DNA of 64,000 nt, from NCBI GenBank assembly GCA_040753015.1, contig JBFMHM010000007.1, positions 2,076 to 66,075 of the forward strand. The letters run 5' to 3'. The DNA is from Candidatus Omnitrophota bacterium. GTDB taxonomy: Bacteria; Omnitrophota; Gorgyraeia; Gygaellales; JBFMHM01. The notes beneath the pieces are model-generated. The model was not told the origin of the DNA. It was given only the letters and a program-made list of their open reading frames with translations, and made no database searches. Positions 41,256 through 60,189 of the stretch are shown here, one piece after another; positions within the stretch are counted from its first letter, which is position 1; every line of letters begins with the position of its first letter. Made by a program: the position numbers and the translations under genes.

Positions 41256-41891
41256 TTAGGGGAATAAAGGGTTCTCCTCTATTAATTTATGTTTAATCAT
41301 GTTGTAATAACTATCATCCCCATATTCCAACTTACGAAATATTGCCCAACTAACAAAATCAACCGCTTGTAAGCTTTTCTCTTCTGCTGGATTTTTTATC
41401 TCTATATTCAATTTTAATTTGTGAGTATTACCAATTTGATTTTTTAAATAAGAACTAAAATTTTCATTTAAGAATTTATTAGTTTCACGTTTAGATGCAA
41501 TTAAATGAATTGTTTCATTAAGTGGTATCAATTTTTTTGTAATTATTCTATCTAAAAGAATATTTGTTACATAATTATAGAGAACAGATTTTTCGTTTTG
41601 TAATTTTATATAAACTCGTTTCTTATTTAAATAAATTGTCATTAAATCACAATCTTTTGATGCGATTTTCTTTAATAATCGCTGTCGCGTAATAGGTTCT
41701 TCTTCTGTAGCATGTAAAACACTATTAACATTCTTATGCTTATTTCTTAAAATACGATGTGCCAATCTGACACACTTTTCTATCTGACGCTTATTTCTTG
41801 TAAATAAAAAAGTAATTACGAAGAATTTTGTAGTTTTTTTCTTAGAAAAATCAAAACCTAAATCGCCTGATTCATCTAAATAAATATACAT
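41256..41891 (-). CDS. DUF3800-like protein (211 aa)
   Basis: N-terminal 'MYIYLDESGDLGF' DUF3800 signature. Confidence 0.5.
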   Translation of the reverse strand: MYIYLDESGDLGFDFSKKKTTKFFVITFLFTRNKRQIEKCVRLAHRILRNKHKNVNSVLHATEEEPITRQRLLKKIASKDCDLMTIYLNKKRVYIKLQNEKSVLYNYVTNILLDRIITKKLIPLNETIHLIASKRETNKFLNENFSSYLKNQIGNTHKLKLNIEIKNPAEEKSLQAVDFVSWAIFRKLEYGDDSYYNMIKHKLIEENPLFP

Positions 41892-43336
41892 TAAATAAAA
41901 GGTATACCTTTAGTAAAACACTCTTCCACTTTAGGCACAACTTCCATATAACTTCTGCAGCAGGCGCCAACAAGAGGGCTTGTATAACCATAAAGCATAC
42001 GATGCACTCGTTCTGGCTTTGAATAAAATTCTCTATTCATCCATCCGGCAAACCGGTTTAGGTCATCTCTGGATAGATATTTTGTGGGCATAACTGCATG
42101 GGCCATATCATAAAACCTGAAATCTTTTATTTCTCTACGTGGACTATTTTTCATTTCTTCCCAAAATTCTGTACCCGGATACGGAACTAAAATCTGCACG
42201 GTCATAAGATCAGGGTCTAACCAATCAAGAGTTTCAGCACGTTTTTTTATTGTTGTTTCATCGTCTTCCCAAAAACCAATCATTACGGTGCCACAGGTAG
42301 AAATATCATTTTCACGAAGCTTAGTAATTGCCTCTTTTATTTGAGCAAGAGTTATATTTTTGCCCATCGCCTTAAGTTTTTCGTCGGTTTCTGCCTCAAT
42401 GCCGATTAAGGTAAGAATACAGCCCGACTGCCTCATTTTTTTATAAAGATGGGTTTGTTCAACAAATTTATCAGCACGCCCCAAAAACATCCAAGAAAAT
42501 TCGAGCTTTCTTTTCAAAATTTCATCACAAAATTCTTCGATACGCTCGGTTTGGCTGTTAAAATCATCGTCTTGAATCTCAAACATCTGAGTACCATATT
42601 TCTTTACTAAAAGCTCTGCCTGATCTGCAATGCGTTTACCGGATAAGCCGCGCCAACGGCCAACATTTTCTTTACGACGGCCGTCATACTGATTCCATTG
42701 AAAACAAAAATAACATCTACCAGCACAACCACGGCTAGTTACAATTCTTACCGCCTTCGGCCAATAAGTATATGAATAATATTTATCTAACGGAAATAAA
42801 TGATATGCCGGTAAGGGCAGGCTGTCTAAATCATCAATAATCGCCCTTGGCCCATTCAATATAACGTTATCTTTTTCTCTAAAACAAAGCCCGTCGATAA
42901 CTCGAAAATTAGCGTTGGGCTTTGCAAGTTCTTGAGTTAATTCTAAAAGAGTATTCTCTCCTTCGCCAATTACTGCAAAATCAATCTCTGGACATTCTCC
43001 TAGGGACTCCTTGCTTAAGGCGTTAAAATGCATTCCACCGCAGACAATTTTTACATTTGGCATAGCTTTCTTGATTTTTCTTGCCGCATCATATATACAA
43101 TGCACCCAAGTTGTTCCGCAACCCATGCCGATTAAATCAGGATTTCTTTTTTTAAGCTCTTCAATCATTTGATCATGGTTTAAATCAAATGCCGGACAAT
43201 CTAATACATCAACTTCGACATCCGTGGTTTTCTCTAACAAGTATGCGGCTAATTGTGCAAAACCCGGATAAATAGATCTCATTTTACCAAAATATACCCA
43301 CATGCCCATCGGCGGAGTTAAAAATGTAATTTTCAT
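41891..43336 (-). CDS. B12-binding radical SAM enzyme no. 1 (481 aa)
   Basis: N-terminal cobalamin-binding-like domain, 'VTSRGCAGRCYFCFQW' CxxxCxxC. It is paralogous to 52049..53515. Confidence 0.8.
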   Translation of the reverse strand: MKITFLTPPMGMWVYFGKMRSIYPGFAQLAAYLLEKTTDVEVDVLDCPAFDLNHDQMIEELKKRNPDLIGMGCGTTWVHCIYDAARKIKKAMPNVKIVCGGMHFNALSKESLGECPEIDFAVIGEGENTLLELTQELAKPNANFRVIDGLCFREKDNVILNGPRAIIDDLDSLPLPAYHLFPLDKYYSYTYWPKAVRIVTSRGCAGRCYFCFQWNQYDGRRKENVGRWRGLSGKRIADQAELLVKKYGTQMFEIQDDDFNSQTERIEEFCDEILKRKLEFSWMFLGRADKFVEQTHLYKKMRQSGCILTLIGIEAETDEKLKAMGKNITLAQIKEAITKLRENDISTCGTVMIGFWEDDETTIKKRAETLDWLDPDLMTVQILVPYPGTEFWEEMKNSPRREIKDFRFYDMAHAVMPTKYLSRDDLNRFAGWMNREFYSKPERVHRMLYGYTSPLVGACCRSYMEVVPKVEECFTKGIPFI

Positions 43337-44232
43337 TAATTAATTATCCTCTTAAAATTATCTCTCAATATAGAATCGCTAAAATTAAGATTTTTAACTA
43401 AGCTTATCGATTCAATAGCATCTTTATTGGCTGGCCAATCACTTCCCCAAAGAATATTATCTTTACTGAATACTTCAATTGCACAATTTATTACATTTAT
43501 AGAAGAAACTCCACTTGTATCAACATAAAATTTCTTTAAGATACTCGTTGGTACTTGCCCTAAATCTTTTACTACATTTATTCCTCTTAACATTGAATAT
43601 GTTGTATCAAAACGTTTTGCCAAAAATGGGATAACACCTGCAAAATGGGCAAAAACAAATTTTAAATTCGGAAATTTATTGCCAATACCCGCCATAATTA
43701 ATTTTCCCATGCACGCACTCAAATCAAAAAGATATTGCATGACAGGAGTCAACAATGGATCAAAGAATCTTTCGCTACCCAGCGGCATCTGTGTCTGCGA
43801 ATGCACAAAAATAGGGATATTATTCTGGCTTAAAAATTCATACAACTCAAAATAAAATTCATCATCTAGATACCTACTTTTATAGCTGGAAGATATTGAT
43901 AATACCTTTAGCCCTAATTCGTGAACTGCACGTTTTGTTTCTTCCAATAGAGAATGCCTGCTTGTCTGTGGAAGAATAAAAGCAGGAACCAGCTTATCCT
44001 TATATTTTTCTAAATCACAACTAAGCTCATCATTATAAATTTTTGCTTCGTTAACATCGCCTAATTTTTTGGCCGCATCTGTAGTAGGATACAAAATTAA
44101 ACTTTTTTTAATTTCATTCTTATCCATAAAATCAATTAATTTACCTAGATCTGACCAAACCGGCGGATAGAATGAAACATTTTCTCTAAATTTTACAGGC
44201 AGATAATGGCTATGTGAATCAAAAATTTGCAT
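43336..44232 (-). CDS. Amidohydrolase-2 (ACMSD-like metal-dependent hydrolase/decarboxylase) family protein
   Basis: 'MQIFDSHSHY' HxH metal ligands at the N-terminus, about 300 aa TIM-barrel pattern. Confidence 0.6.
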   Translation of the reverse strand: MQIFDSHSHYLPVKFRENVSFYPPVWSDLGKLIDFMDKNEIKKSLILYPTTDAAKKLGDVNEAKIYNDELSCDLEKYKDKLVPAFILPQTSRHSLLEETKRAVHELGLKVLSISSSYKSRYLDDEFYFELYEFLSQNNIPIFVHSQTQMPLGSERFFDPLLTPVMQYLFDLSACMGKLIMAGIGNKFPNLKFVFAHFAGVIPFLAKRFDTTYSMLRGINVVKDLGQVPTSILKKFYVDTSGVSSINVINCAIEVFSKDNILWGSDWPANKDAIESISLVKNLNFSDSILRDNFKRIIN

Positions 44233-44427: not shown

Positions 44428-44444
44428 ATCCCTCCTAATTATTG

Positions 44445-44900
44445 TTAAACTTTAATTTTTTGTGCCTGGGCCTCTTTTTCAATAATACCTTTTATTATCT
44501 TTAGATTATCCTGGGAATGCTTATTTATAAAGCCTTCCACGGTTTTATCATCAAACTTAGTTTTTTCATCCATTTCAAAATGCTGAATCCAGGTCATTTC
44601 TACTCCGTCAACTCTTTGCGTATAAAGCCAAATAATCTTCATAAATTTAAAAGGGAATTTTGGTTCTTGCCGTTCTGCATAAGTAAAGAATTTATCCTTA
44701 AATAATAATCTCCATGATTGCCAGCTTTTACTTTCATCATCAGTAAGACGAAATATAATTTTATTATCTTCCCTTTTAAGAATTTCTGCTTTTTTATATT
44801 CTCCACCAAAAAGCTCAGTCCAACGCGGAATATCATTTGTAATATCAAATACCATCTCATACGATGCATTGATTATAATTGAGTTACTTGTGTGTCCCAT
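44445..44900 (-). CDS. SRPBCC (polyketide cyclase/dehydrase-like, Bet v1 fold) protein
   Basis: About 150 aa with the start pattern of the Polyketide_cyc2 family. It sits in the KS/ACP cluster. Confidence 0.5.
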   Translation of the reverse strand: MGHTSNSIIINASYEMVFDITNDIPRWTELFGGEYKKAEILKREDNKIIFRLTDDESKSWQSWRLLFKDKFFTYAERQEPKFPFKFMKIIWLYTQRVDGVEMTWIQHFEMDEKTKFDDKTVEGFINKHSQDNLKIIKGIIEKEAQAQKIKV

Positions 44901-44971
44901 AATCTATCTCCTTTATATGATATCAACTGCCTAAATTCAACTTACCTCTATATTTTTCATTCTATAGAACT

Positions 44972-45347: not shown

Positions 45348-46670
45348 TTAATTTATCACCCAATACCCGCCCTTATCTGGGCCAATACGTTTAATAATTC
45401 CCTCTTTCTTCATCTTCGCAATATGCCATTCTATTCCCTTAAGTGTAAGACAAGAACTTTTTGCAAGAACAGATATTGTTATTGCCGAATTTTCTTTAAT
45501 TAGGCGCAATATTTTCTCCCTAGTTTTCTCCCTAGTTTTCTCCCTAGTTTTATCTAAACCTTCTACAGTCTTTGCTTTTAAAAAACATACGCACAAGCCA
45601 CCTGTTATTTCTGAGAATTCAGGTTCAGGAAGTTTTGCTTGTCGGCATTTTTCTACAATCTTTATTGTACCCCTACCCCATGATTCGATAAATCCAGCTT
45701 TAAAAAATACATCGGCTAAAAGCTCATTACGCGGGCAAGATAAGTGAGGCTTTTTTAACTTATCACAAGTAATTTCGCGAGGAAGTTTACCAATATTCCA
45801 TAACCATAATTTATTATCATAGACTCGTATTTGCGTATGAGGACCTGTATAATCACGGTGTATAACTGCATTAATTATTGCCTCGCGTAAAGCATCTTCA
45901 GGATAGATAAGATCTTCTTTTCGATATATGCCTTCATAATAAAATCTATTTTCTAAATATTTTACTTTTAGAATCTCTAGCGTCTTTTCAACTTGTTCAA
46001 AAATATTTCCTTCGATGATATCAGTACTAATAACTTCGCTTTCCGATGCAAATCGTCCAATTTGAATAAATGCTGAAGTAAAGTATTTTTTAGGATTTTT
46101 ACCAAAAAGAAGAATAGCTGCGCGTTTTAATTTTCCTTTTTCCATAAGATTTAGTTTTTCTAAAATAAGTTTAACGTTTTTTTCACGATATATAAACGGA
46201 AATCTTGTTTTAGCTAATTGCTGAAAATACCTGATAGCTTTAATACTAATATCTTTGGATGAAGCCCTTGGCTCAATTATATTATCCCAAGATGTACCAG
46301 CACAAGAAAGAATAAAATGAGATAATTCTATTCCTTTCAATTCAGAAGTTGTGCTGCCAGAACGAATATAAAAGTTACCTTTATAAGAAATTGCGGCTTT
46401 GTATTTTTTAACAATTATTTTTATAATCGGACCATGTGTTTTTTTAATATCTTTTATATCGACAACAATGCCTAAAATATCTCTTATTTTATTTGGAATA
46501 TACTCTAAAAGTTTGTTTACATCTCTTAAGCCAACAACTCTACCTTCGTCATTAATACCTATATACAATATGCCACCACTTGTATTTGCAAATGCGCATA
46601 TTGTTTTAAGCGCTTCATCACTCCACTGTTCTTTAAATTCTATATTTTGATTTTCGTTTTTATAAATCAT
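45348..46670 (-). CDS. AlbA_2 (Schlafen-like) DNA-binding / HATPase-like / C-terminal HTH regulator ('RecG C-terminal-like ATP-dependent DNA helicase' family)
   Basis: N-terminal 'NIEFKEQWSDEALKTICAFANTSGGILYIGI' AlbA_2 signature. Contains an in-frame (KTRE)x3 repeat. Confidence 0.7.
   Translation of the reverse strand: MIYKNENQNIEFKEQWSDEALKTICAFANTSGGILYIGINDEGRVVGLRDVNKLLEYIPNKIRDILGIVVDIKDIKKTHGPIIKIIVKKYKAAISYKGNFYIRSGSTTSELKGIELSHFILSCAGTSWDNIIEPRASSKDISIKAIRYFQQLAKTRFPFIYREKNVKLILEKLNLMEKGKLKRAAILLFGKNPKKYFTSAFIQIGRFASESEVISTDIIEGNIFEQVEKTLEILKVKYLENRFYYEGIYRKEDLIYPEDALREAIINAVIHRDYTGPHTQIRVYDNKLWLWNIGKLPREITCDKLKKPHLSCPRNELLADVFFKAGFIESWGRGTIKIVEKCRQAKLPEPEFSEITGGLCVCFLKAKTVEGLDKTREKTREKTREKILRLIKENSAITISVLAKSSCLTLKGIEWHIAKMKKEGIIKRIGPDKGGYWVIN
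45512..45547 (-). repeat. Perfect 12-bp x3 tandem repeat (ttttctccctag), in frame, encoding TREKTREKTREK
   Basis: Seen directly in the sequence; a partial fourth unit follows. Confidence 0.9.
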
Positions 46671-47461
46671 ACAATTCCTACCGCCCTAATCCAACTTGCA
46701 CCAACATCCTTAATCTTTATCGGAAAGCAAATAAATTTAAAGCCGCTTGCTGGCAATTTATCTAAATTAGCCAAACGTTCGATATGTGCATACTCACGCT
46801 TGCGGCCATAAAAATGCGCTGGCCAAAGATATTTACTATCACGTGTACGCATAAAATCCGCCATCATAAATTTATAAGGCCGGTCAAAGCCTAGCGTGTC
46901 AATACCAATAATATTTACGCCAAAATTTAAAATATATTCAATTGCATCTACGCTAACACCGGGATAATTTGTTAAATAATCACGGGTTCCAAAAAATTTA
47001 TCTGCACCAGTGCGTAATAAAACAACATCGTTTTTCTTAATCTGATAATTTATTTTTTTTAAAGCATTTTCTATATCCGCTTTTAAAATAAGCTCCCCGG
47101 GTAATTTGCTAGTTAAATCTAAAACAACCCCGTCTGAAAAACACCATTCTAAAGGAATAGCTTCAGCAGTTTTTGAAGCGCGATTTTCTGACTTTGTTCC
47201 ATAGTGAAAAGAAAAATCAATATGTGTGCCAATATGTACCGGGCAATGCACAGTTTCGAGTGATAAAAACTCCTCATCTGGCAAATCCGTAGGTTTAATA
47301 ATGCGTTTACCCAGAAAAAAATCTATTTTCCCTTTTAATGTGCCCTTCATCATTACCCAATTTAAATGCTGGACACCTTCTTTATGTCCAAGCCTCTCTA
47401 TACTAAAAGGATGGACCTCTGGCGCTCTCTCGTCTATAGGTAAACTTAAATCGATTATCAT
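46667..47461 (-). CDS. Cyclase-family protein (kynurenine-formamidase-like fold)
   Basis: 'HIGTHIDFSFH' metal-binding His cluster typical of PF04199. Confidence 0.65.
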   Translation of the reverse strand: MIIDLSLPIDERAPEVHPFSIERLGHKEGVQHLNWVMMKGTLKGKIDFFLGKRIIKPTDLPDEEFLSLETVHCPVHIGTHIDFSFHYGTKSENRASKTAEAIPLEWCFSDGVVLDLTSKLPGELILKADIENALKKINYQIKKNDVVLLRTGADKFFGTRDYLTNYPGVSVDAIEYILNFGVNIIGIDTLGFDRPYKFMMADFMRTRDSKYLWPAHFYGRKREYAHIERLANLDKLPASGFKFICFPIKIKDVGASWIRAVGIV

Positions 47462-47694
47462 ACAATTTTTTTAGAATCTATTATTTTTGCTAAATCACTG
47501 ACTGTTGCAGAACGGGGAATTTCGCGTGCAGTTAATTTTACATTAAATTTTTTCTCTAGAGCAATCGCAAGCTCAACCATTTCTGTTGAGTCCATAGAAA
47601 CATCTTCGTAAAGACGCGAATCTAAATTAATTTCATTTGGTTTTAGCTTTAATAAGTTTATTATAATTCCTCTAATTTCTTCAGCTACTGACAT
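47458..47694 (-). CDS. acpP: Acyl carrier protein
   Basis: 78 aa; phosphopantetheine-attachment site 'DVSMDSTEMVELA'. Confidence 0.8.
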   Translation of the reverse strand: MSVAEEIRGIIINLLKLKPNEINLDSRLYEDVSMDSTEMVELAIALEKKFNVKLTAREIPRSATVSDLAKIIDSKKIV

Positions 47695-47708: not shown

Positions 47709-48941
47709 TTAAACTTTTCCTAGCACTAATACTGCATTTATGCCGCCCCGGCCGCGCGAAATTATAAGTGCTTTATCTATCTTTGTTTCACGCGCCTGGT
47801 TAGGTACATAATCTAAATCACACTCTGGATCAGGCGTTTGATAATTTATTGTTGCAGGGGCTAAGTTATTTTGCATTGCTAATATTGTACTAATTGTATC
47901 GACTGCTCCTGACGCACCAAGCAGATTTCCAAACATTGCCTTTGGAGCACTCACGGGGATTTTTTTAGCTCTATCTTTAAATACTTTCTTAATTGCTCGT
48001 GTTTCAGAAATATCTGCTTCATAAGTTGCAGCACCATCTGCGCAAATATAGTCAATTTCATCTGGAGTTACATTTGCATCTTTTAAAGCAAGCTCAATTG
48101 CAGCAGCAAGGCCAGCACCATTAATATCTGGCTTAATCCTATCTACTCCATCACAATTAGTTGCAAAACCTAAAATTTTTGCATAAATTTGCGCGTTTCT
48201 CTTTTTGGCGCGTTCCAAACTCTCTAAGATTAATACGCCAGAACCTTCTCCAATTGCAAAACCGTTCCTATCTTTGTCAAATGGTTTATAGGCAGTTTGC
48301 GGGCTATCATTACCATCTGACAACACTCCTGAAGTATTACAGCATAAAAGAGCATAAGGAGTAACTGGCGCCTCCATACCGCCAGCCAAAATTAAATCAA
48401 GTTTATTTTGTTTCAAAACTTTTCTAGCATAACCTATTGCCTGTAGAGAACTTGCGCGATCGCTAACAACTGTTTTACTATAACCTTTAATTTCATAATA
48501 TATTGAGATTTGCCCTTGCGGCGCAGCAGGAAACCAAGCGCTTGCCATATAGGGGCTTACACCTTCACGGCCCTCTAGATAAAGATCTCGCAATTCAGTT
48601 TCTGCATAAAGCCATCCGCCGATAGCATTACCCATAAAAATTCCGGTCCTATCTTTATTCTCATTTTGCATATCAATATTTGCATCGGTTAAAGCAGCCT
48701 CCGAAGCAACTAAAGCCATATGAGAAAATAAATCAATTTTTTTAAGCAGGCGCTCGGATAAATGGGTATAAGTATCCATGCCTTTAACTACGCCGGCAAT
48801 ATGCGATCTATAAAGCGAAGCATCAAACCGTTCAATTTTTGATATGAAAGACCTGCCGAATTTTATATTTGCCCAAAATTGGCGCTTACCCACACCTGAT
48901 GGGCTTACTACACCTAAACCTGTAATAACAACTTCATTCAT
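47709..48941 (-). CDS. Ketosynthase-like protein lacking the catalytic Cys/His/His (chain-length-factor / KS-beta-like)
   Basis: Thiolase-fold KS homologue. At the active-site position it has 'VVSDRASSLQAIGYA' where the partner has 'ISTGCTAGSDSVGFS'. Its His positions read 'ICADGAATYEAD' and 'MFGNLLGASG' where the partner has 'NAHGSSTRQND' and 'MIGHPLAAAN'. Confidence 0.75.
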   Translation of the reverse strand: MNEVVITGLGVVSPSGVGKRQFWANIKFGRSFISKIERFDASLYRSHIAGVVKGMDTYTHLSERLLKKIDLFSHMALVASEAALTDANIDMQNENKDRTGIFMGNAIGGWLYAETELRDLYLEGREGVSPYMASAWFPAAPQGQISIYYEIKGYSKTVVSDRASSLQAIGYARKVLKQNKLDLILAGGMEAPVTPYALLCCNTSGVLSDGNDSPQTAYKPFDKDRNGFAIGEGSGVLILESLERAKKRNAQIYAKILGFATNCDGVDRIKPDINGAGLAAAIELALKDANVTPDEIDYICADGAATYEADISETRAIKKVFKDRAKKIPVSAPKAMFGNLLGASGAVDTISTILAMQNNLAPATINYQTPDPECDLDYVPNQARETKIDKALIISRGRGGINAVLVLGKV

Positions 48942-52086: not shown

Positions 52087-53515
52087 ACTTAGAGATATTA
52101 TTCATAAAATCTTTAACGCAAAGTTTTACAAGATCAGAATAATTACTCTCCATAATTCTATGTATCCTAGAGGCTTTAGAGAAAAATTCTCTCATACACC
52201 AAGCACCTAACCTGCCAAGCTCTTCAACAGACAAATGATTTGTTGGAATTACCGGATGTAAGAAATCCCAAGTTTTTAAATCAATTTTTTGGGGATCAAA
52301 TAATTTTTGTTTTAACGCCTTCTTCCAAACAGGTGATCCGGGAACAGGTGTTACAAAATCAATTGCTAAAATATCCGGGTCAGCTTCTTCAGCAAAATTA
52401 AACCTATCTTTAATGCGCGCCTCGCTATCATCTTCAAGACCAATTAATATTGTACCAACAGTTGCAATATCGTTTTTACGTAGCTCTTCGATTGTTTGTT
52501 TGATTTGATTAACTGTAATACCTTTGCCGATACGTTTAAGCTCGTCATCACTAGAAACCTCAATACCAACCAACCCCATAAAAAGCCCAGCTTTTTTCAT
52601 TAAACCAAATATATCAATTTGTTTTACCCAATCATCGGCACGGCCTAAAATTACCCATTTAATTGCCAGCCTACGGCGCAAAATTTCATTGCAAGTCTCA
52701 ATAACCATATTTTTATCGACGTTAAAAGCATCGTCCTGAAATACTACAACTTTTATACCAAATTCTTTTTCTAAATATTCCAACTCATCTACGATCTTAT
52801 TACCTTTTTTCGAACGCCAAGAAAGAAAATCGCGAGGAGATCTTGGGTCATACTGTGACCATTCGTAACAAAATGAGCACCCGCCAGGGCAACCCCTTGA
52901 CGTAGAAAGCTCTGCAAATGGCTTCCAATAAGTATGCCCCACATATTTATCCATAGGAAATAAATCATATGCTGGCATAGGTAAAATATTTATATCTCTA
53001 ATTAACTCTCTATGTTTTCCAGCTATAATTTGATTGCCCTTACGAGATGCTAAACCATTAATACCTGAAAAATCTGTCTTTTTATCTTCTAATGCCTTAA
53101 CTAATTCTTCTAATGTAAGTTCTGCCTCTCCAATCATAACAAAATCTATATAAGAATGGCCTTCTAAAGTTTCTTTATAAATAGATGAATACCATAGGCC
53201 ACCAACAGCAATTTTAATATTCGGCATCATCCCTTTTATTGCCTTTGCAATTTCATTAAAATGCCAAATAACCGCAAGCCCGCCAGTCGAATGCAAAATC
53301 TCACCCAGCACAACTAAATCTGGATTATAATTTTTTACTTTTTCTAAAATTTGATCTTTACTAAGATTATCTGCCCGGCCGTCAATAACGCTAACCTCGC
53401 TAATTTTTTTCTCTCTTAAATATGCTGCAAGCTGTGCATAATATTGATTAGGTGCGCGATGTTCACCATGAGTTGCCCAAGCCCCAATGTTTGGCATAAC
53501 AAATAAAACTTTCAT
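52049..53515 (-). CDS. B12-binding radical SAM enzyme no. 2 (488 aa)
   Basis: 'STSRGCPGGCSFCYEW' CxxxCxxC and an N-terminal B12-binding-like domain. It is paralogous to 41891..43336. Confidence 0.8.
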   Translation of the reverse strand: MKVLFVMPNIGAWATHGEHRAPNQYYAQLAAYLREKKISEVSVIDGRADNLSKDQILEKVKNYNPDLVVLGEILHSTGGLAVIWHFNEIAKAIKGMMPNIKIAVGGLWYSSIYKETLEGHSYIDFVMIGEAELTLEELVKALEDKKTDFSGINGLASRKGNQIIAGKHRELIRDINILPMPAYDLFPMDKYVGHTYWKPFAELSTSRGCPGGCSFCYEWSQYDPRSPRDFLSWRSKKGNKIVDELEYLEKEFGIKVVVFQDDAFNVDKNMVIETCNEILRRRLAIKWVILGRADDWVKQIDIFGLMKKAGLFMGLVGIEVSSDDELKRIGKGITVNQIKQTIEELRKNDIATVGTILIGLEDDSEARIKDRFNFAEEADPDILAIDFVTPVPGSPVWKKALKQKLFDPQKIDLKTWDFLHPVIPTNHLSVEELGRLGAWCMREFFSKASRIHRIMESNYSDLVKLCVKDFMNNISKFEASATKGELYV

Positions 53516-53519
53516 TCTA

Positions 53520-54992
53520 TTATCCTCCGAACCAGCTTGACACTAATGATTTTCCACCACTAGTTAGATCAATATTAATATGTTTAGTTTGTGTATATTC
53601 CAACAAACCATCTCTACCTAATTCACGGCCAATACCACTTTGTTTATAACCACCAAAAGGCGTTTGATTAAAAAACATTCCATAGGTATTAACCCAAACC
53701 GTGCCACTACGTAATTTCTTGCTCACAATATTTGCACGCAATAAATCTTTTGTCCAAATCATTGCTGCAAGGCCATAGATAGTGTCGTTAGCGATTTCAA
53801 TTGCCTCATCTTCCGAAGAAAACTTAATTATTGATAACACGGGCCCAAAAATTTCCTCACGGGCAATGCGCATATTATTTTTTACATTATCAAAAATTGT
53901 CGGGGCTAAAAAATAACCCTTATTAAAATCTTTTGGAATATTTCCGCCGCACAAAAGCCGCGCTTCTTTCTTGCCTATCTCTATATAATCTAAAACTCTC
54001 TGCCTCTGCTGTTTTGAAACTAGCGGGCCAATATCGCTAGAGTAATCTAAAGCTGGGCCAAGTTTTAATTTCTTGGTTTTTTCAATAAGTAATTCAATAA
54101 ATTTATCGTAAATTGTATCTTGTAATAAAAGCCGCGAGCCAGCAACACACATTTGCCCCTGATTCATAAAAATTGCTGACATTGTTCCACCTACAGCTGC
54201 CTCTAAATCGCAATCATCAAATACAATGTTGGGAGATTTTCCACCTAATTCTAAAAATACTTTTTTTACATTGTTTGAAGCAAGGCTCATTACTTCTTTA
54301 CCTACCTCAGTTGAACCAGTAAAAGCAACCATATCAACGCTAGTATTCTGCGCTAATTCTTTTCCGATTTCTGCGCCGCTACCAGTTACAATATTAAACA
54401 CGCCTTTTGGTAAACCGGCTTTATCAATTATTTTTGCAAGTTCAAGACTGGTTAGACTTGCCAATTGTGACGGTTTAAAAACAATCGTATTTCCACAAGC
54501 AAGCGCTGGAGCAATTTTCCAAGCTGCCATAATTAAAGGATAATTCCACGGTGTAATTGAAGCAATAACTCCAAGCGGTTCTCTGACAACTGTACTCTGC
54601 CCACCAAATGGGACAGAAACTTGCTCGCCTTTTAACTCCGATTCAACTTTAGAAAAATAATCAAAACATTCTGCAGCCGTTGGCACATCGATAAATGTAG
54701 TTTGTTTAATTGTTTTTCCGGTATCGCGCGCCTCAAGCTCAGCTAACTTTTGTGCATTTTCTAAAATTCCTTCAGAAATCTTTTTTAAATATTCGGCGCG
54801 CTCGCTAAATGCTAAATTCGACCAATCACCTTTATCAAAAGTAGTCCTTGCAAAAGAAATCGCCTGCTTAACTAAATTATTGTCGGCCTTTGGAATTTCG
54901 GCAATAACTTCTTCAGTGGATGGATCGATCGAAGAAATCACTTCTTTCGTATCTAACCAATTACCATTAATATATAGTTGATATTTTTTCAT
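53520..54992 (-). CDS. NAD(P)-dependent aldehyde dehydrogenase
   Basis: 'FTGSTEVGK', 'ELGGKSP' and catalytic Cys 'GQMCVAGSR'. Confidence 0.9.
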   Translation of the reverse strand: MKKYQLYINGNWLDTKEVISSIDPSTEEVIAEIPKADNNLVKQAISFARTTFDKGDWSNLAFSERAEYLKKISEGILENAQKLAELEARDTGKTIKQTTFIDVPTAAECFDYFSKVESELKGEQVSVPFGGQSTVVREPLGVIASITPWNYPLIMAAWKIAPALACGNTIVFKPSQLASLTSLELAKIIDKAGLPKGVFNIVTGSGAEIGKELAQNTSVDMVAFTGSTEVGKEVMSLASNNVKKVFLELGGKSPNIVFDDCDLEAAVGGTMSAIFMNQGQMCVAGSRLLLQDTIYDKFIELLIEKTKKLKLGPALDYSSDIGPLVSKQQRQRVLDYIEIGKKEARLLCGGNIPKDFNKGYFLAPTIFDNVKNNMRIAREEIFGPVLSIIKFSSEDEAIEIANDTIYGLAAMIWTKDLLRANIVSKKLRSGTVWVNTYGMFFNQTPFGGYKQSGIGRELGRDGLLEYTQTKHINIDLTSGGKSLVSSWFGG

Positions 54993-55171: not shown

Positions 55172-56146
55172 TTATTCTACCGGTACATTTTGCCACAACT
55201 CAAAAAGCCTGGCAAACTGAGCATACCAACGCGATATCTTGGCAAAGTCACCTTGTAATTTTAATTTTTTCTGGGTAGTTGCAACAAACGGGTCAAGCTC
55301 TCTGTTAAAAATCATCTTCCAGTAGCTCTTTGGCCCAGAAATTAAAAATTCTACTTTTTCATCATCGCCGACATTTATAATTTTTCCCTCTCTAAACTCA
55401 AAACTATAAACTTTATTATCTTCGTCTAATTTTACAGCTAAATTTAAAGTTAAATTTGTGCGCTTGCCTTCAGACTGAAATTTATCATCGGTATTTACCA
55501 AACGGACAATTTCATCAATCTGCTCTTTCGAAAAAAGTTCATATCTTTTCGTTGAGATATTTTTTTGCACAGTTTCTTTTGCTTGTCCTTGATTAGAATA
55601 TAATTTTTTAATTATATCCATTTCAACCATTTCATCTAAAATTTGGATTAGATAAAAAGCATCTTTTAAAGTTTTACCGATTGCCACAACTCCATGATTT
55701 TTTAAAACAACAATATTGCTTTTTTTAAGCGCCTCGATTACTGGATTAATATCGCTAACTGTTGGCGTAAGCTGTTCAATTACCGGAACATCGCCAACAT
55801 AAAGTTTTGTTTCAAAAGTAAGTGGGGTAATTTTGTCATTTACGCTAAAATACGCCACAACTTTTGGCGAATGCGAATGCACAACGCAATTTGTATCAAT
55901 ATTTTTATAAATACCTAAATGCAGCGACAATTCTGATGTAGGATTTTTTTTACCATCGAGCAATTCTCCGGAGAGATTAATTTTTGCAATATCATTATCG
56001 AATAACTCACCCAAAGAACTATCGTGCGTAGTAATAAATACACTATCATTATCTTTAGCGCTGATATTTCCCGAGCGACCACAGACAAGATTCTTGCCCC
56101 ACAATAAGCTACCGATTCGTATTATATTTTGCTTGATATCGTCCAT
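55172..56146 (-). CDS. Class II (FucA/MtnB-type) aldolase fused to a C-terminal SCP2-like domain
   Basis: N-terminal domain has 'GNISAKD' and 'VVHSHSP' Zn-ligand histidines. The last ~110 aa look SCP2-like ('LAVKLDEDNKVYSFEFREGKI...KLKLQGDFAKI'). Confidence 0.7.
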   Translation of the reverse strand: MDDIKQNIIRIGSLLWGKNLVCGRSGNISAKDNDSVFITTHDSSLGELFDNDIAKINLSGELLDGKKNPTSELSLHLGIYKNIDTNCVVHSHSPKVVAYFSVNDKITPLTFETKLYVGDVPVIEQLTPTVSDINPVIEALKKSNIVVLKNHGVVAIGKTLKDAFYLIQILDEMVEMDIIKKLYSNQGQAKETVQKNISTKRYELFSKEQIDEIVRLVNTDDKFQSEGKRTNLTLNLAVKLDEDNKVYSFEFREGKIINVGDDEKVEFLISGPKSYWKMIFNRELDPFVATTQKKLKLQGDFAKISRWYAQFARLFELWQNVPVE

Positions 56147-56271: not shown

Positions 56272-57195
56272 TTATATCAATACTGCCTTTGTTACTAATT
56301 CCCTTGGCGTTACGTCAAATCCCGGATAATACGCCTTAATTCCCTTTGGTGCAATGCGAATATTTTTTATTTTTGTAATCTCTTCGCCACTTCTAATTTC
56401 AATTGGAATATCCTTGCCTGTTTTTATATTAGGGCTTGGATGTTGTGTTAATACATAAAAAGGAATATTAAAATATTTTGCTAAAATTGCAATTTGAAAT
56501 GTTCCAATTTTATTTGCAAAATCACCGTTCATTGCCGAGCGGTCAGAGCCAACCACAACCATATTTACTAAACCCTTTTCCATAACATGCGCCACGGCAT
56601 TATCCGTAATTAAAGTTACATCAAAACCAGCACGCGCCAGTTCCCACGCAGTTAAACGTGCACCTTGAAAATATGGCCGGGTTTCTGTTGCGATAAACTT
56701 AACTTTTTTACCCGCTTTTTTGCAAAAATTTGCCGCCTCAACTAATTCACCGCTAACATTACAATGTGTTAATACAGTTGCTCCATCGGGAATAAAAGAA
56801 GCAAGCGTATTTGCACGTGTTAAACGTTTATTTTTTATATCAATAAGCATTCCCTCAATACTTCTTGTCAAATCTTTACCTTCAGCGTGCCACTTTAAAA
56901 ATAGAGATGTAATGTCACTAAAAGGAAATGTTGGCCGCGATTTATTTAAAGCTACAGCAACTTTTTTTAAATGTTCTGTGCTACTATCTTTTTTAAATTC
57001 AAGTAAAAATGTATATAACACGCACAAATATTGGCCAAAGGCGCGCGTCTTCATTGTCTTAATTGCACGCACAACATCCAAATAATTCTTTGCCTTAATA
57101 TATTTAACTTTATTTGGAATTAAAGTTTCATCGAGAATATAGAGTGCATTCCCTTTTAAACTAACCGGCCAAAAAAGCGGTGAGTGTTTTGTCAT
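56272..57195 (-). CDS. mtnA: MtnA/eIF-2B-family sugar-1-phosphate isomerase (5-methylthio- or 5-deoxy-ribose-1-phosphate isomerase)
   Basis: 'LTHCNVSGEL', 'TETRPYFQGARLTAWEL', 'VVGSDRSAMNGDFANKIGT' and 'IPFYV'. Confidence 0.8.
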   Translation of the reverse strand: MTKHSPLFWPVSLKGNALYILDETLIPNKVKYIKAKNYLDVVRAIKTMKTRAFGQYLCVLYTFLLEFKKDSSTEHLKKVAVALNKSRPTFPFSDITSLFLKWHAEGKDLTRSIEGMLIDIKNKRLTRANTLASFIPDGATVLTHCNVSGELVEAANFCKKAGKKVKFIATETRPYFQGARLTAWELARAGFDVTLITDNAVAHVMEKGLVNMVVVGSDRSAMNGDFANKIGTFQIAILAKYFNIPFYVLTQHPSPNIKTGKDIPIEIRSGEEITKIKNIRIAPKGIKAYYPGFDVTPRELVTKAVLI

Positions 57196-57941
57196 TTTCC
57201 TGCTAATGTTTTTACTGCTGCCAGCGATACTTTCACTATAGAGCTCTCAGCATCATAATATTTTGGGTTAATGAAACCAAGCTCGCCAGTAATTAAGTTA
57301 TCACTTACAGCTAAGATGCATCCTGCCCTAACCTGGTTTAACTTTGCAATTGTAAGCATTGTACTTGAAACCATATCTACCGCAATTGCCCCTTTTACAC
57401 GTTTCTCTTCAACAAGTTCTCTTGTTTCGCGAAGCAATGCATCAGTCACCCACACAGTGCCTAAATGATATTTTACACCTAAACTTTCACAAGCTTTAAC
57501 TAAAGCGCCTGTCACATTTTTATCTGCTTCTGATTTAAAATCTTCCTTAACATAATAAGGAGTTACTCCATCCCCCCTAATTACATCTTTTACAATTACT
57601 ACATCGCCAACCTGTATTTTTTCATCCATTGCACCGCAAGAACCGGCCCTTATAATATTTTTAGTACCTGCAGCACAAAGAATTTCTGCACAAATTGCCG
57701 AATCAGCAGAATACCTGCCGCCGTTTCCCGTAGTAATTTTTATTCCCTCATATTCACCGTTATACATTGTGTAATCAAAAAATGAAAACTTTTTTACTGT
57801 ATTAGTTAGATTTTTTAATACTGCTTGTGAACGCTCTACAGTGCCAGGAATAATTGCATATTCTGCTAAATCTCCCGGGCGTAAATTTAACATATAAAGC
57901 ATTTCTTTTGCTGACATATGAACATCTTTCTGCATCTGCAT
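57192..57941 (-). CDS. Family-1 nucleoside phosphorylase (PNP/UDP/MTA phosphorylase fold)
   Basis: PNP_UDP_1-like 'IIPGTVERSQ...KITTGNGG' pattern, 249 aa. Confidence 0.7.
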   Translation of the reverse strand: MQMQKDVHMSAKEMLYMLNLRPGDLAEYAIIPGTVERSQAVLKNLTNTVKKFSFFDYTMYNGEYEGIKITTGNGGRYSADSAICAEILCAAGTKNIIRAGSCGAMDEKIQVGDVVIVKDVIRGDGVTPYYVKEDFKSEADKNVTGALVKACESLGVKYHLGTVWVTDALLRETRELVEEKRVKGAIAVDMVSSTMLTIAKLNQVRAGCILAVSDNLITGELGFINPKYYDAESSIVKVSLAAVKTLAGK

Positions 57942-57956
57942 ATCTTTTCTCCTTTT

Positions 57957-58677
57957 CTATTTCAATTCTTCCTGTATTGGTAATTTTAATGCACTTGCAT
58001 CAGGAATTTTCCCAGATAAGTACTTAGGTAATTTTTTAGTAAGATAATATTCAGCGATACCTACTGGTTTTTTAACACTACGCAATGCGTACTCTACAAC
58101 GATATCATCTTTATCTGCACATAAAATAATACCTATTGACGGATTCTCATCTTTTAACTTTATTTGCTCATCTAAAAGTTGCAAATAAAAATCCATTTTA
58201 GCAGCATATTCTGGTTCAAATTTACCCGTTTTAAGTTCAATCGCCACAAGAGACTTTAATTCACGATTAAAAAATAAAAGGTCTATGAGAATATTTAATA
58301 TAGAATTCACGCTCTCTATCATTAGCTATTTTTTCCATAATTAAGAGATTATGCCCCCATGGTATTTCTGCAACAAGTTGTTGCAGAAATGGTTTATTTT
58401 TATATTCTTCGTAGAATCTCCGCATATTCCAAACATTTCTTTCCGAAAACCCATAAGTTTGTGGAAATACCTTTTTCAAATCGCGGGCAAGCAATACAAT
58501 AACATTATCACCCCATTTATATTTTTGCTGACGTTCGAAAATACTTTTACCAATATCCCAATAAAGTTTTATAAGCTCTTTATTAACCGTCTTTATTGCC
58601 CGAATGCGTGAAGCAACAATACGCGATTTAATCTCACTCAAAAATTTAATATATTCTTTATTAACAATACTACTCAT
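57957..58677 (-). pseudogene. Frameshifted DUF1016/YhcG-family PDDEXK nuclease, split into two overlapping ORFs
   Basis: ORF 58267..58677 is the N-terminal part ('...EREFYIKYSHRP'). ORF 57957..58322 carries the nuclease core ('LVAIELKTGKFEPEYAAKMDFYLQLLDE...IGIILCADKDDIVVEYAL'). They are in different frames and overlap by 56 nt. Confidence 0.65.
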
Positions 58678-58689
58678 ATTACAGCTTTT

Positions 58690-60189
58690 TTATCCCTTTA
58701 ATGCTTTTTTATCTATCTTATCTGTTCTTGTTTTGGGTAACCTATCACGAATTTCTATATAATGCGGTACTTTAAAATTTGCTAAATGTGAACGGCAAAA
58801 ATGCCTGATATCATCTTCGGATAGTTTTACGCCTTCCTTAAAACTTACAACCGCTTTAACTACCTCGCCTCGTAACTTATCCTCTACGCCAATTACTGCC
58901 ACCTCATTAATCTCGGGAATTTTGTGGATTACATTCTCAACTTCTGTAGCATAAACAATCTCCCCTCCTACCTTAATCATTTCTTTAATTCGGCCCATAA
59001 TATAGAGGTAGCCATCTTCATCAATTTTACCTAAGTCTCCGGTATGAAACCAACCGTTACGCATTACACGTGCAGTTTCTTCCTCGTCTTTGTAGTAGCC
59101 AACCATCACCGCCCAGCTTCTCATTGTAATTTCGCCAACTTCACCACACGACAATTCCTTATCATCTTCATCAACAATTTTTAATTCCACCCAAGGAGCA
59201 GGTAAACCAACAGAGCGAACTTTCGGGCTGCCCATTGGTATTACTGTGTTTGGCGGTGAGGTTTCGGTCATTCCCCAACCATGTAATAATTTTGCCTTTG
59301 GGCAATATTGCATAAACCTCTGTAAAACTTCTGGAGAGCTAGGAGCACCAAAAACATTTACCCAGCGAATACTAGATAAATCATATTTTTCGAATTCTTT
59401 CAACTGTAAAAGTGCAATATACATCGAGGGAACAAGATGAAAGCAGGTAACTTTGTAAGTTTCGATATTGCGTAAAAATTCAATTGGGCTAAAACGGTCC
59501 ATTACAATTAAAGTAATGCCATAATAAATGCAATTTTGCAAATAAACCAAACCGCCAAAATGTGTCAACGGCAATGCGCAAAGCTTAACATCTTTGTCAG
59601 ATAAATCTACAAAATAATCCATTGCTTGAGGCGAACCATCAAGATGCCTATAATTTAAAAGCACACCTTTGGGCCGTCCGGTTGTGCCAGAAGTATAGAA
59701 AATTAAAGCATTATCTGTTTCTTCTACTTTAACATTCGGTTCTTTAATCTCACCACGGCTTAAAAAATCTGAGAATAAATAAAATCCATTATGTTTTTCT
59801 TCATAAGAAACAATTACGTCTTTAAGGGTAGGAATTCTCTCCTTAAGGCTCAACACCGTTACACCGTCTTTTGGCCGAATAATTAAAAGTTTTGCCTCGG
59901 AGTGCGTAATACAAGAAACTAATTCTTCTTCTTTGAGCATATAATCAAGAGGAACAACTACCGCACCTAAACAAAAAAGGGCTAAGTAACTATAAATACA
60001 CTCTAGAGAATTAGGCATAAATAAAGCGACTTTGTCGCCTTTCTGAATACCAATTTCTTGCAGACTATGGCAAAATTTGTAAACTTGCTCTAAAAGTTCG
60101 CCAAAAGTAACGGTTTTTTCTTTAAATACTAACGCGGGTTTGTTTGGATACTTTTTTGCTTTATCCTTAAGTATTTCTTTAACTTGCAT
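58690..60189 (-). CDS. AMP-dependent acyl-CoA synthetase/ligase
   Basis: 'IFYTSGTTGRPKGV' AMP-binding motif, 'GWGMTE' and 'HTGDLG'. Confidence 0.85.
   Translation of the reverse strand: MQVKEILKDKAKKYPNKPALVFKEKTVTFGELLEQVYKFCHSLQEIGIQKGDKVALFMPNSLECIYSYLALFCLGAVVVPLDYMLKEEELVSCITHSEAKLLIIRPKDGVTVLSLKERIPTLKDVIVSYEEKHNGFYLFSDFLSRGEIKEPNVKVEETDNALIFYTSGTTGRPKGVLLNYRHLDGSPQAMDYFVDLSDKDVKLCALPLTHFGGLVYLQNCIYYGITLIVMDRFSPIEFLRNIETYKVTCFHLVPSMYIALLQLKEFEKYDLSSIRWVNVFGAPSSPEVLQRFMQYCPKAKLLHGWGMTETSPPNTVIPMGSPKVRSVGLPAPWVELKIVDEDDKELSCGEVGEITMRSWAVMVGYYKDEEETARVMRNGWFHTGDLGKIDEDGYLYIMGRIKEMIKVGGEIVYATEVENVIHKIPEINEVAVIGVEDKLRGEVVKAVVSFKEGVKLSEDDIRHFCRSHLANFKVPHYIEIRDRLPKTRTDKIDKKALKG

Follow-up and report, generated by a model that had tools for sequence, protein, structure and literature searches.

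A conserved gene cluster of the phylum Omnitrophota combining a ketosynthase pair with B12-binding radical-SAM and putative 5'-deoxyadenosine-processing enzymes

Introduction

The aromatic type II polyketide synthases (PKSs), the B12-binding radical S-adenosylmethionine (SAM) enzymes BchE and HpnJ, and the pathways that dismantle 5'-deoxyadenosine and its substituted derivatives are the described systems closest to the gene cluster that we report here, which lies on the minus strand at positions 41256-60189 of a 64,000-nt stretch of DNA (the window, by which we mean the whole stretch analysed) from a metagenome-assembled genome (MAG) of Candidatus Omnitrophota. Members of the Omnitrophota are abundant, uncultured, mostly anaerobic and ultra-small bacteria, some of them predatory or host-dependent. 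BchE and HpnJ are thought to form five-membered carbocycles without O2. In the fluoroacetate route of Streptomyces cattleya and in the route to the chloroethylmalonyl-coenzyme A (CoA) of salinosporamide, a 5'-substituted 5'-deoxyadenosine is converted by way of a substituted acetaldehyde to an acid, and in the latter case the chloroethylmalonyl-CoA feeds a PKS. The dihydroxyacetone phosphate (DHAP) shunt, or 5-deoxyribose disposal, uses a nucleoside phosphorylase, an MtnA-like isomerase as well as an aldolase of class II to convert 5'-deoxyadenosine to DHAP and acetaldehyde, and DrdA is a proven 5-deoxyribulose-1-phosphate aldolase (PMC6079011).

A catalogue of ketosynthase (KS)/chain-length factor (CLF) pairs from 2023 includes Candidatus Omnitrophica among 14 phyla, with a class named 'type II KS - type II FAS' (for fatty-acid synthase), to which the KS pair described below would probably be assigned (PMC10132072). 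A metagenome study reports 'ladderane'-type biosynthetic gene cluster calls, which combine KS and radical-SAM genes, in Omnitrophota MAGs (bioRxiv 10.1101/2022.12.20.521206), and these calls may be the present cluster as seen by an automated rule. Neither survey gives a gene-by-gene description, a conservation analysis, the dead-KS signature, a shunt module or a function; the broad genome studies of the phylum make no mention of the cluster (PMC10066038; bioRxiv 10.64898/2026.06.07.730766), and no functional description of it was found in the literature.

Here we report that the region is one copy of a conserved biosynthetic gene cluster of the phylum Omnitrophota, comprising about 15 genes. 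The account of it that we favour, with moderate confidence, is a pathway that runs anaerobically, leads to a cyclised or phenolic polyketide and includes on-site disposal or re-use of the by-product of its radical-SAM chemistry.

Results and Discussion

The proteins of the window were scanned with Pfam and NCBIfam profiles, and the genes that a preliminary description of this DNA had listed in the interval were all present on the minus strand, with the domains and motifs ascribed to them. The interval is an unbroken series of minus-strand open reading frames (ORFs), closely spaced, with overlaps of 1-14 nt or gaps of no more than 212 nt (Table 1). Transcription would proceed from a CoA ligase gene through a split YhcG gene and genes for a nucleoside phosphorylase, an isomerase, an aldolase fused to an SCP2 domain, an aldehyde dehydrogenase (ALDH), the radical-SAM enzyme rSAM1 and a DUF2621-like protein; these are followed by the genes for an ApbA/PanE oxidoreductase, a TIGR04076 protein, the two ketosynthases KS-alpha and KS-beta, an acyl carrier protein (ACP), a PF04199 cyclase, an AlbA_2 protein and a lipoprotein, and finally by those for an SRPBCC protein, an Amidohydro_2 protein, a second radical-SAM enzyme (rSAM2) and a DUF3800 protein. 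The trio between 55172 and 57941 (PNP_UDP_1 phosphorylase, IF-2B/MtnA-like isomerase and Aldolase_II plus SCP2 protein) had been passed over by the preliminary description, as had the DUF2621-like ORF, the split YhcG gene, the lipoprotein and the DUF3800 protein.

An alignment of the dead KS served as query for a scan of a single genome from each GTDB species, and 234 species-representative genomes were found to encode a relative of this protein. The loci of the best 80 of these 234, with dead-KS identities of 65-71%, were compared by mapping every protein of the window with tblastn, and the syntenic cluster is found in 80/80 loci fetched. They derive from MAGs labelled Omnitrophota, plus some that are labelled 'Planctomycetales' or 'bacterium' and carry the same cluster. 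Since the gene set recurs in all 80 loci, each from another species, its clustering is far beyond chance. The earlier proposal of a biosynthetic cluster around the KS, the dead KS, the ACP and a B12-binding radical-SAM enzyme is supported. KS-alpha is 100% identical to a protein from a Candidatus Omnitrophota MAG in NCBI; the 120 best of its 7,977 homologues are all 71-76% identical to it, and every named one is from Omnitrophota.

Membership was counted in the 22 loci that have 10 kb on both sides (full-flank loci). KS-alpha, KS-beta, the ACP, the PF04199 cyclase, ApbA and the DUF2621-like gene are present in 22/22; rSAM1, the SRPBCC gene and a short-chain dehydrogenase/reductase (SDR) ketoreductase in 21/22, so that synteny of the KS and radical-SAM genes is conserved; and the phosphorylase, isomerase and Amidohydro_2 genes in 20/22. 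Less constant are the aldolase-SCP2 gene (18/22), the ALDH gene and a major facilitator superfamily (MFS) transporter gene (16/22 each) and the TIGR04076 gene (12/22), the last of which had been named as an operon partner; it is present here and in only about half of the related loci. The arrangement of these genes also varies. The phosphorylase, isomerase and aldolase genes (hereafter the shunt genes) lie upstream of the PKS genes in 14 loci of the full-flank set and downstream in 6, and rSAM1 has two positions, one ahead of the DUF2621-like gene and the other flanked by KS-beta and the ACP. With the ALDH and CoA ligase genes, the shunt genes form a module resembling the DHAP shunt, and its linkage to the PKS holds through three gene orders. 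Our main argument that the shunt genes, rSAM1 and the PKS genes work together is that this linkage has outlasted rearrangement.

The core of the cluster is the KS pair with its ACP. In an alignment of orthologues, the columns of the catalytic triad hold Cys/His/His in 72/72 KS-alpha sequences and Arg/Asp/Asn in 83/83 KS-beta sequences. The two proteins are 36% identical, their genes overlap by 4 nt, and KS-beta is presumed to be the heterodimer partner of KS-alpha. The resemblance to the aromatic type II PKSs, represented by the actinorhodin KS/CLF (1TQY) and Photorhabdus AntD/AntE (6SMO), extends from a discrete Cys/His/His KS-alpha (45% identity) to a translationally coupled dead KS partner and a dedicated ACP, and further to neighbours of the cyclase, SRPBCC and decarboxylase types, a ketoreductase (in the relatives) and a CoA ligase as in the Ant cluster. 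When all PDB sequences were searched with KS-alpha, the actinorhodin KS (389.7 bits) and AntD (388.7 bits) scored above the best FabF (349.3 bits), and with a profile of 20 sequences the corresponding scores were 438.5, 444.8 and 406. In a neighbour-joining tree of 10 KS-alpha, 9 KS-beta, two type II ketosynthases and two FabF sequences, KS-alpha and the type II ketosynthases were split from FabF and KS-beta in 99% of 200 bootstraps. Grouping of the KS with housekeeping FabF had been named in the preliminary description as the finding that would overturn it, and KS-alpha groups with the aromatic type II PKSs instead. An identity as housekeeping FabF was also rejected for both proteins on the FabF equivalog TIGR03150 (cutoff 494), below which KS-alpha (456) and KS-beta (421) both fall, and KS-beta lacks the triad. 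The ACP likewise scores 48 bits, below the cutoff of 70 for housekeeping AcpP.

KS-beta differs from the CLFs of the aromatic systems. Its best PDB match is a FabF (312 bits), against 239 bits for the actinorhodin CLF (359 versus 272 with a profile), and it has Arg at the active-site position where CLFs have their signature Gln. The earlier view of a partner KS devoid of Cys/His/His has thus held, whereas its identification as a CLF has not; judged by these residues and affinities, KS-beta is a dead FabF-like partner and not a canonical chain-length factor. Put in terms of a minimal PKS, the active triad of KS-alpha, its grouping and the dedicated ACP were found, and a partner of the CLF clade with its Gln was not. 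The cluster is further unlike the aromatic type II PKSs in that its host belongs to an anaerobic candidate phylum, its conservation is phylum-wide rather than strain-specific, and it has no oxygenases, with a B12-binding radical-SAM enzyme and a 5'-deoxyadenosine module in their stead. In the closest relative that has rSAM2 (L090), a ThiF/E1-like gene and a small ORF (4846-5520) are inserted between KS-beta and the ACP.

The phosphorylase, isomerase and aldolase resemble the DHAP shunt (MtnP or DrdK, MtnA/DrdI and Ald2/DrdA; PMC6079011) in that all three are encoded in one operon, and in their light the ALDH and the CoA ligase become components of a module for processing 5'-deoxyadenosine. The phosphorylase lies below every equivalog cutoff (Udp 124 against 280, DeoD 89 against 230, HpnG 47 against 187) and outside the MTAP family (TIGR01694, 19 bits). 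Its Met17 aligns with His8 of uridine phosphorylase, which binds the 5'-OH, and is invariant in 37/37 orthologues; an invariant Met at this site fits a 5'-deoxy or 5'-substituted nucleoside, and we propose that the enzyme acts on nucleosides of the 5'-deoxyadenosine type. The phosphorylase gene overlaps by 4 nt that of the isomerase, which exceeds the cutoff of TIGR00524 (eIF-2B_rel; 199 against 186) and approaches that of PRK05720 (255 against 271). The isomerase motifs THCN and GSDR...NGDFANKIGT are readable, and we take, by eye, the Cys and the Asp in THCN and GSDR to be the catalytic residues known from MtnA. The aldolase keeps the ligands of the FucA type (HSH, NHG, the Glu in PTSE and the phosphate loop GNIS), with residues G26, N27, S29, E72, H90, H92 and H151 invariant in 25 fusion proteins. 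Its AlphaFold2 (AF2) model is of high quality (pLDDT 92.9, pTM 0.87), finds FucA (4c24, 1.4e-15) and DrdA (6btd, 2.6e-15) as its best Foldseek matches and superposes on the latter. What defines the DHAP shunt is therefore found here, namely a phosphorylase beside the isomerase and aldolase, an isomerase of the MtnA/DrdI family and an aldolase of FucA/DrdA fold with its metal and phosphate ligands, and by their sequences the three enzymes look catalytically competent.

The module is nevertheless unlike the DHAP shunt in several respects, for its phosphorylase belongs to the DeoD/Udp-like hexameric family and not to the MTAP family, its aldolase is fused to SCP2, and it has an ALDH and a FadD-like CoA ligase as additional members and lies within a PKS cluster. 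Every complete orthologue (40/40) has the fusion at full length, and of 1.84 billion representative proteins no more than about 30 clusters show this full-length aldolase-SCP2 architecture. The ALDH, which follows the aldolase in the 16 full-flank loci that have it, scores below all equivalog cutoffs, the best being BADH (580 against 669). The CoA ligase just reaches the cutoff of the long-chain-fatty-acid-CoA ligase model NF004837 (478 bits against 476) and remains far from that of an acetate-CoA ligase model (271 against 729); its orthologues (46-61% identity) head the cluster in 13 of the fetched loci, seven of them full-flank. In the sequence of phosphorylase, isomerase, aldolase and ALDH the module also shares the enzyme logic of the fluoroacetate and salinosporamide routes, from which it differs in that no SAM halogenase (DUF62) or other enzyme installing a 5'-substituent was found in the cluster.

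Parts of the module occur beyond the cluster. Two loci of distant lineages with no PKS in view (L087 and L083) have an AMP-binding ligase gene directly after the aldolase-SCP2 gene, in the former within the order phosphorylase-isomerase-aldolase-ligase, and in a further locus (L084) ApbA follows a distant aldolase-SCP2 gene. The gene neighbourhoods of two more distant fusions, in L085 and L086, gave no information. A representative protein of 551 aa (P0163) consists of a related class II aldolase fused to a radical-SAM/SPASM enzyme, a hint that this aldolase subfamily serves radical-SAM enzymes. In another protein, P0134 (694 aa), an N-terminal B12-like radical-SAM part is joined to an aldolase-SCP2 part, with both domains incomplete at the junction, so that it may be a chimera. 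The MtnA-like isomerase of L087 (8478-10004) is far longer, at 508 aa with two IF-2B stretches, and a second, weaker IF-2B match stands in tandem with the isomerase in L004, L007, L011, L020, L021 and L043.

The two radical-SAM proteins, which are 40% identical to each other, resemble BchE and HpnJ in domain order, with a B12-binding domain at the N-terminus and, after it, a radical-SAM domain that has a CxxxCxxC motif (CPGGCSFC and CAGRCYFC). BchE and HpnJ are also the best-scoring characterised families for both, at less than half of the respective cutoffs: 221 bits for rSAM1 and 211 for rSAM2 on the BchE model TIGR02026 (cutoff 481), and 159 and 141 on HpnJ (cutoff 578). An identity as BchE was rejected on these scores and on context, with no bch genes among the window proteins in the domain scans; more broadly, the rSAM proteins differ from BchE and HpnJ in having a PKS as partner and no bacteriochlorophyll or hopanoid genes nearby. 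Neither protein matches the ladderane-associated family TIGR04072, on whose model they score 93 and 92 bits (cutoff 360), and the cispentacin type was rejected on the AmcF scores (144-154 bits against 325). The PDB holds only remote neighbours of rSAM1 (TokK, AprD4 and OxsB).

Both enzymes had been taken for operon partners of the KS genes, and both are present here, but only rSAM1 is a conserved member of the cluster, with orthologues 54-64% identical in both of its gene orders. No orthologue of rSAM2 occurs in the 80 scanned loci, and a database search found orthologues (71-76% identity) in only a handful of Omnitrophota. In L090 rSAM2 once more comes after Amidohydro_2, as the last gene of a cluster that is typical in other respects and retains its MFS and SDR genes. 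In the closed genome of Candidatus Velamenicoccus archaeovorus it lies elsewhere, beside MarR, DUF2889 and resistance-nodulation-division (RND) efflux genes. We regard rSAM2 as a lineage-specific addition and its connection with the pathway as uncertain. A different small cluster, in a Zixibacteria MAG (L089, 10001-15714), begins with a radical-SAM gene that shares 39% identity with rSAM2 and also contains genes for an SDR, an FAD-linked oxidase, a haem-oxygenase-like/TENA protein and an O-methyltransferase, a context suggesting that the rSAM2 subfamily acts on small aromatic metabolites elsewhere too.

As to the remaining conserved genes, that of the DUF2621-like protein is always directly upstream of ApbA. 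The PF04199 cyclase has remote PDB matches to isatin hydrolase and kynurenine formamidase, and the SRPBCC protein, whose orthologues are 54-80% identical, could be either an aromatase/cyclase or a lipid-binding chaperone. The best PDB matches of the Amidohydro_2 protein are the 5-carboxyvanillate decarboxylases LigW and LigW2, ACMSD and gamma-resorcylate decarboxylase, which makes it a probable non-oxidative decarboxylase of a hydroxy-aromatic acid and fits the 'resorcinol-type' product suggested in the preliminary description. As regards ketoreductases and aromatase/cyclases, the PF04199 cyclase and the weakly matched SRPBCC protein (28 bits) are present, and an SDR, found in 21/22 relatives, is lacking in the window. 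Domain scans found no dehydratase (FabZ/FabA-type) or enoyl-reductase domain among the cluster proteins. An aryl-polyene cluster was rejected because the cluster proteins of the window, L001 and L002 include no hot-dog dehydratases, second ACP or LolA-like/MMPL export genes.

Table 1. Features of the cluster, in order of transcription, and associated features of the window
Feature	Position	Strand	Details
Candidate promoter TTGACA-16-TACAAT	60238..60265	-	About 50 nt upstream of the CoA-ligase start; 11/12 consensus matches
Acyl-CoA (or acyl-ACP) ligase, FadD/MenE-like, 499 aa, first cluster gene	58690-60189	-	AMP-binding + AMP-binding_C
YhcG/DUF1016 PDDEXK nuclease, frameshifted pseudogene	57957-58677	-	Overlapping ORFs 58267-58677 and 57957-58322
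Nucleoside phosphorylase, hexameric NP-I family	57192-57941	-	PF01048 (PNP_UDP_1)
MtnA/DrdI-like isomerase (ribose-1-phosphate to ribulose-1-phosphate)	56272-57195	-	IF-2B, 183 bits
Class II (metal-dependent) aldolase with C-terminal SCP2	55172-56146	-	Aldolase_II + SCP2
NAD(P)-dependent non-acylating aldehyde dehydrogenase	53520-54992	-	Aldedh, 596 bits
rSAM1, BchE/HpnJ-like, class B	52049-53515	-	B12-binding + Radical_SAM; conserved cluster member
DUF2621-like small protein	51784-52086	-	PF11084, 32.6 bits; probable start ATG at 52056, giving 90 aa
ApbA/PanE NAD(P)H oxidoreductase, candidate keto-reductase	50771-51787	-	ApbA + ApbA_C; TIGR00745, 172 against 141
Tandem TIGR04076 protein, accessory member	50215-50784	-	100.9 bits, two stretches; three invariant Cys per repeat
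KS-alpha, active ketosynthase	48938-50197	-	Cys170/His310/His347; 'TISTGCTAGSDS', 'NAHGSST', 'IGHPL'
KS-beta, catalytically dead KS paralogue	47709-48941	-	Arg/Asp/Asn at the Cys/His/His positions
ACP	47458-47694	-	PP-binding, 43 bits; Ser in MDSTEM
PF04199 'putative cyclase', metal hydrolase/cyclase	46667-47461	-	106.5 bits; HIGTHIDFSFH (HxGTHxDxPxH-type)
AlbA_2/Schlafen + HATPase_c_4 + winged helix-turn-helix protein	45348-46670	-	Weak pAgo/Aga-associated PADLOC matches
Lipoprotein, 120 aa	44972-45334	-	Window-only, with the AlbA_2 protein
SRPBCC (Polyketide_cyc/START-like)	44445-44900	-	PF03364, 28.0 against cutoff 23.4; PF10604, 23.4, below cutoff
Amidohydrolase_2	43336-44232	-	PF04909, 79 bits; N-terminal HSH and GSDWP motifs
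rSAM2	41891-43336	-	B12-binding + Radical_SAM; add-on at cluster end
DUF3800 protein	41256-41891	-	PF12686, 52 bits; absent from related loci
Xanthine-dehydrogenase family, FAD-binding subunit	40176-40967
Xanthine-dehydrogenase family, 2Fe-2S subunit	39722-40198
Xanthine-dehydrogenase family, MoCoBD subunit	37444-39729

In the pathway that we favour, the KS pair would build a short poly-beta-keto chain on the ACP, and the folding and processing of this chain would fall to the PF04199 cyclase, to the SRPBCC protein, to a reductase (ApbA/PanE in this copy, with an SDR as well in the relatives) and to the LigW-like decarboxylase, the outcome being a cyclised, probably phenolic compound. On this compound rSAM1 could carry out an oxygen-independent radical step that methylates or oxidises carbon or forms a C-C bond; a radical-SAM enzyme of the BchE kind might, in an anaerobe, take the place of the actinomycete oxygenases in oxidation, methylation or ring closure. 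Each turnover would release 5'-deoxyadenosine, which is inhibitory, and the cluster appears to carry its own disposal line for it: the phosphorylase would yield 5-deoxyribose-1-phosphate, the MtnA-like isomerase would turn this into 5-deoxyribulose-1-phosphate, the class II aldolase would cleave the latter to DHAP and an aldehyde, and the ALDH would oxidise the aldehyde to an acid. The CoA ligase may then load an acid as the PKS primer, possibly the very product of the ALDH. We infer the substrates, the order of the steps and the product of this scheme from the observed gene content, motifs, family affinities and linkage. These enzymes agree better with a small polyketide, cyclised and probably phenolic, than with a lipid that is fully reduced, and a phenolic lipid bearing an alkyl tail would likewise be in keeping with the lipid-binding domains and the fatty-type ligase.

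Several observations weigh against this interpretation. The functional claims draw on homology and gene linkage only. The reference sampling behind the bootstrap value of the KS tree is small, with two type II and two FabF sequences and no CLF sequence, and because KS-beta, with its Arg and its proximity to FabF, is not of the CLF type, the rules established for actinomycete type II PKSs may not transfer. The SRPBCC match is weak, and rSAM1 lies below the cutoff of every characterised family. Plain salvage of 5'-deoxyadenosine explains neither the constant fusion of the aldolase to a lipid-binding SCP2 domain nor a CoA ligase that is medium/long-chain- or aryl-acid-like and not of the acetate type. 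One full-flank locus (L002) has the PKS genes and no shunt genes within 10 kb. Finally, the present copy, which has neither SDR nor MFS gene and contains three insertions, could make a different product or be in decay.

The unexplained fusion and ligase bear directly on an alternative that we consider unlikely, although it is the strongest of those weighed, in which the shunt genes, the ALDH and the ligase form a supply line of building blocks for the KS primer and not a means of waste disposal. Its substrate could be methylthioadenosine or else the adenosylated form of a hydrophobic molecule, made by a radical-SAM enzyme as adenosylhopane and aminofutalosine are, and the 5'-substituted 5'-deoxyadenosine would give DHAP and X-CH2-CHO, then X-CH2-COOH, and lastly a CoA ester that serves as a non-acetate primer. 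This is the logic by which fluoroacetate arises from 5'-fluoro-5'-deoxyadenosine and the chloroethylmalonyl-CoA of salinosporamide is made. The ribose of SAM would thereby prime a PKS, a hydrophobic group on the nucleoside perhaps being held by SCP2, and the product would be an anaerobic phenolic lipid or quinone-like compound made throughout the phylum, a proposal to which we also grant only a small chance. CoA ligases of type II PKS clusters typically load non-acetate starters (EncN, AuaEII), and the FadD/MenE-like, not acetate-type, ligase of this cluster is in keeping with such a role. So are the SCP2 fusion of every complete aldolase orthologue, an architecture rare elsewhere, and its fixed two-domain arrangement, as indicated by the pTM of the AF2 model. 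The position of the ligase gene right after the aldolase-SCP2 gene in L087 and L083 implies that the ligase belongs with the aldolase, yet the ALDH is missing between the two in both loci. The second-best family of rSAM1 is HpnJ, whose substrate has a ribosyl-derived side chain on which the enzyme works, HpnG and futalosine hydrolase are weak matches of the phosphorylase, and there is a precedent in fluoroacetaldehyde (cited in PMC6079011). Our low rating of this alternative stems from the fact that no enzyme installing a 5'-substituent is evident, the cluster holding neither a fluorinase/chlorinase-type enzyme nor a known adenosylating one of the HpnH or MqnE type. The fusion of an aldolase with a radical-SAM/SPASM enzyme in P0163 fits the simple removal of a by-product, and SCP2 might bind the hydrophobic polyketide instead of an aldolase substrate. 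The known adenosylating radical-SAM enzymes have no B12 domain, which also counts against this alternative.

Ranking behind it, and improbable in our judgement, is an unusual membrane lipid with a methyl-branched, cyclised or radical-modified acyl chain, for which the KS pair would act as a specialised fatty-acid elongase and rSAM1 would modify an unactivated carbon of the ACP-bound chain; it corresponds to the lipid side of what the preliminary description had proposed. The placement of rSAM1 between KS-beta and the ACP in one of the gene orders agrees with this, as do the lipid-binding folds of SCP2 and SRPBCC, a CoA ligase that reaches the long-chain-fatty-acid-CoA ligase cutoff, and the FabF-like character of KS-beta; a core role in the cell is suggested by conservation throughout the phylum at 65-76% identity, and ladderane-type calls have been made in Omnitrophota (bioRxiv 10.1101/2022.12.20.521206). 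However, full cycles of reduction are not encoded locally, given the lack of a local dehydratase or enoyl reductase, KS-alpha groups with the ketosynthases of aromatic PKSs, and rSAM1 falls far short of TIGR04072 (93 against 360), while the PF04199 cyclase, the Amidohydro_2 protein and the MFS exporter of the relatives fit a small cyclised metabolite better.

That there is no dedicated pathway at all, the KS pair and ACP being a housekeeping fatty-acid synthase and the other genes its chance neighbours in a compact single-strand genome, is very improbable: nearly all genes of the window are on the minus strand, so that shared orientation means little, and FabF models give good scores for both ketosynthases (456 and 421 bits), but both stay below the equivalog cutoff, one is dead in 83/83 species, KS-alpha sides with the type II PKSs at 99% bootstrap, the cluster has no FabD/H/G/Z/I set, and the same 15 or so genes have stayed together in 80 species through rearrangements.

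The copy in the window departs from its relatives in both losses and gains. No SDR ketoreductase and no MFS gene occur anywhere in the 64 kb, and with rSAM2 the copy has acquired a second radical-SAM gene. The split YhcG gene, with DUF1016_N and YhcG_C on separate ORFs (PADLOC PDC-S02), is absent from all related loci, in which the CoA ligase gene abuts that of the phosphorylase. The AlbA_2 protein had been described as a regulator among the operon partners, a role its distribution does not support, as it is a window-only insertion that is absent, together with the adjoining lipoprotein, from 82/82 related loci, and in these the cyclase gene abuts the SRPBCC gene. The DUF3800 protein is probably unrelated to the pathway. 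These three window-only insertions (YhcG, AlbA_2-type and DUF3800) look like hitchhikers of the kind found in defence islands. Apart from the missing SDR and MFS genes, the pathway genes are intact in this copy, which may represent a variant product, a reduction based on ApbA, or early decay.

A pathway of about 15 genes that is kept in hundreds of species likely makes something of importance for the biology of Omnitrophota, and its product might be a phenolic compound of the membrane or with redox activity, or else a molecule that acts on hosts. The presumed KS heterodimer, in whose silent subunit an invariant Arg stands in place of the Gln of CLFs, bears on the evolution of type II PKSs from FabF. 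The association of a BchE/HpnJ-like B12-binding radical-SAM enzyme with a carrier-protein pathway would place such chemistry in anoxic settings, where the classical oxygenases of type II systems cannot work. A shunt with a lipid-binding aldolase within the cluster would represent either the clearest genomic case of pathway-specific removal of a radical-SAM by-product or a novel way for the ribose of SAM to enter a polyketide. We see a moderately high chance that the cluster hides new enzymology.

Other features of the window

Directly downstream of the cluster, at 33542-40967, are molybdenum cofactor genes (MoaA, MoeA and XdhC) and those of a three-subunit enzyme of the xanthine-dehydrogenase family (Table 1). 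Their membership in the cluster, for an anaerobic hydroxylation, was rejected for now, as they are absent from the flanks of 80/80 Omnitrophota loci. Fer2 and MoCoBD subunits likewise come after the aldolase-SCP2/ligase genes in the distant locus L083.

Upstream of the CoA ligase gene, the promoter in Table 1 is a candidate only, the promoter and terminator scan as a whole being at chance level. A Doc/Fic-like toxin gene with an 86-aa helix-turn-helix partner (60306-60979) lies directly upstream of the cluster, and the pair recurs in L045. Elsewhere in the window, a SoFic-like Fic protein and an AAA_14/DUF4143 ATPase (PDC-S01) are encoded at 24295-25524 and 11267-12517. An ORF of 946 aa with a GTG start (61088-63928) has no PADLOC match, and a histidine-kinase-like ATPase motif can be seen by eye near its C-terminus.

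Giant proteins are a reported trait of Omnitrophota. The window contains two very large minus-strand ORFs, of 2467 aa (12613-20016, TTG start) and 1319 aa (20178-24137), in which no Pfam domain was found at E <= 1e-4.

A search of the window with Rfam at gathering thresholds returned no SAM or B12 riboswitch, and its only matches were two tRNAs. These are the divergent tRNA-Ala(GGC) and tRNA-Leu(CAA) at 29850-30077, which adjoin the gene of leucyl-tRNA synthetase; the ORF listed for this enzyme, with a TTG start, overlaps tRNA-Ala, and its true start is probably further downstream.

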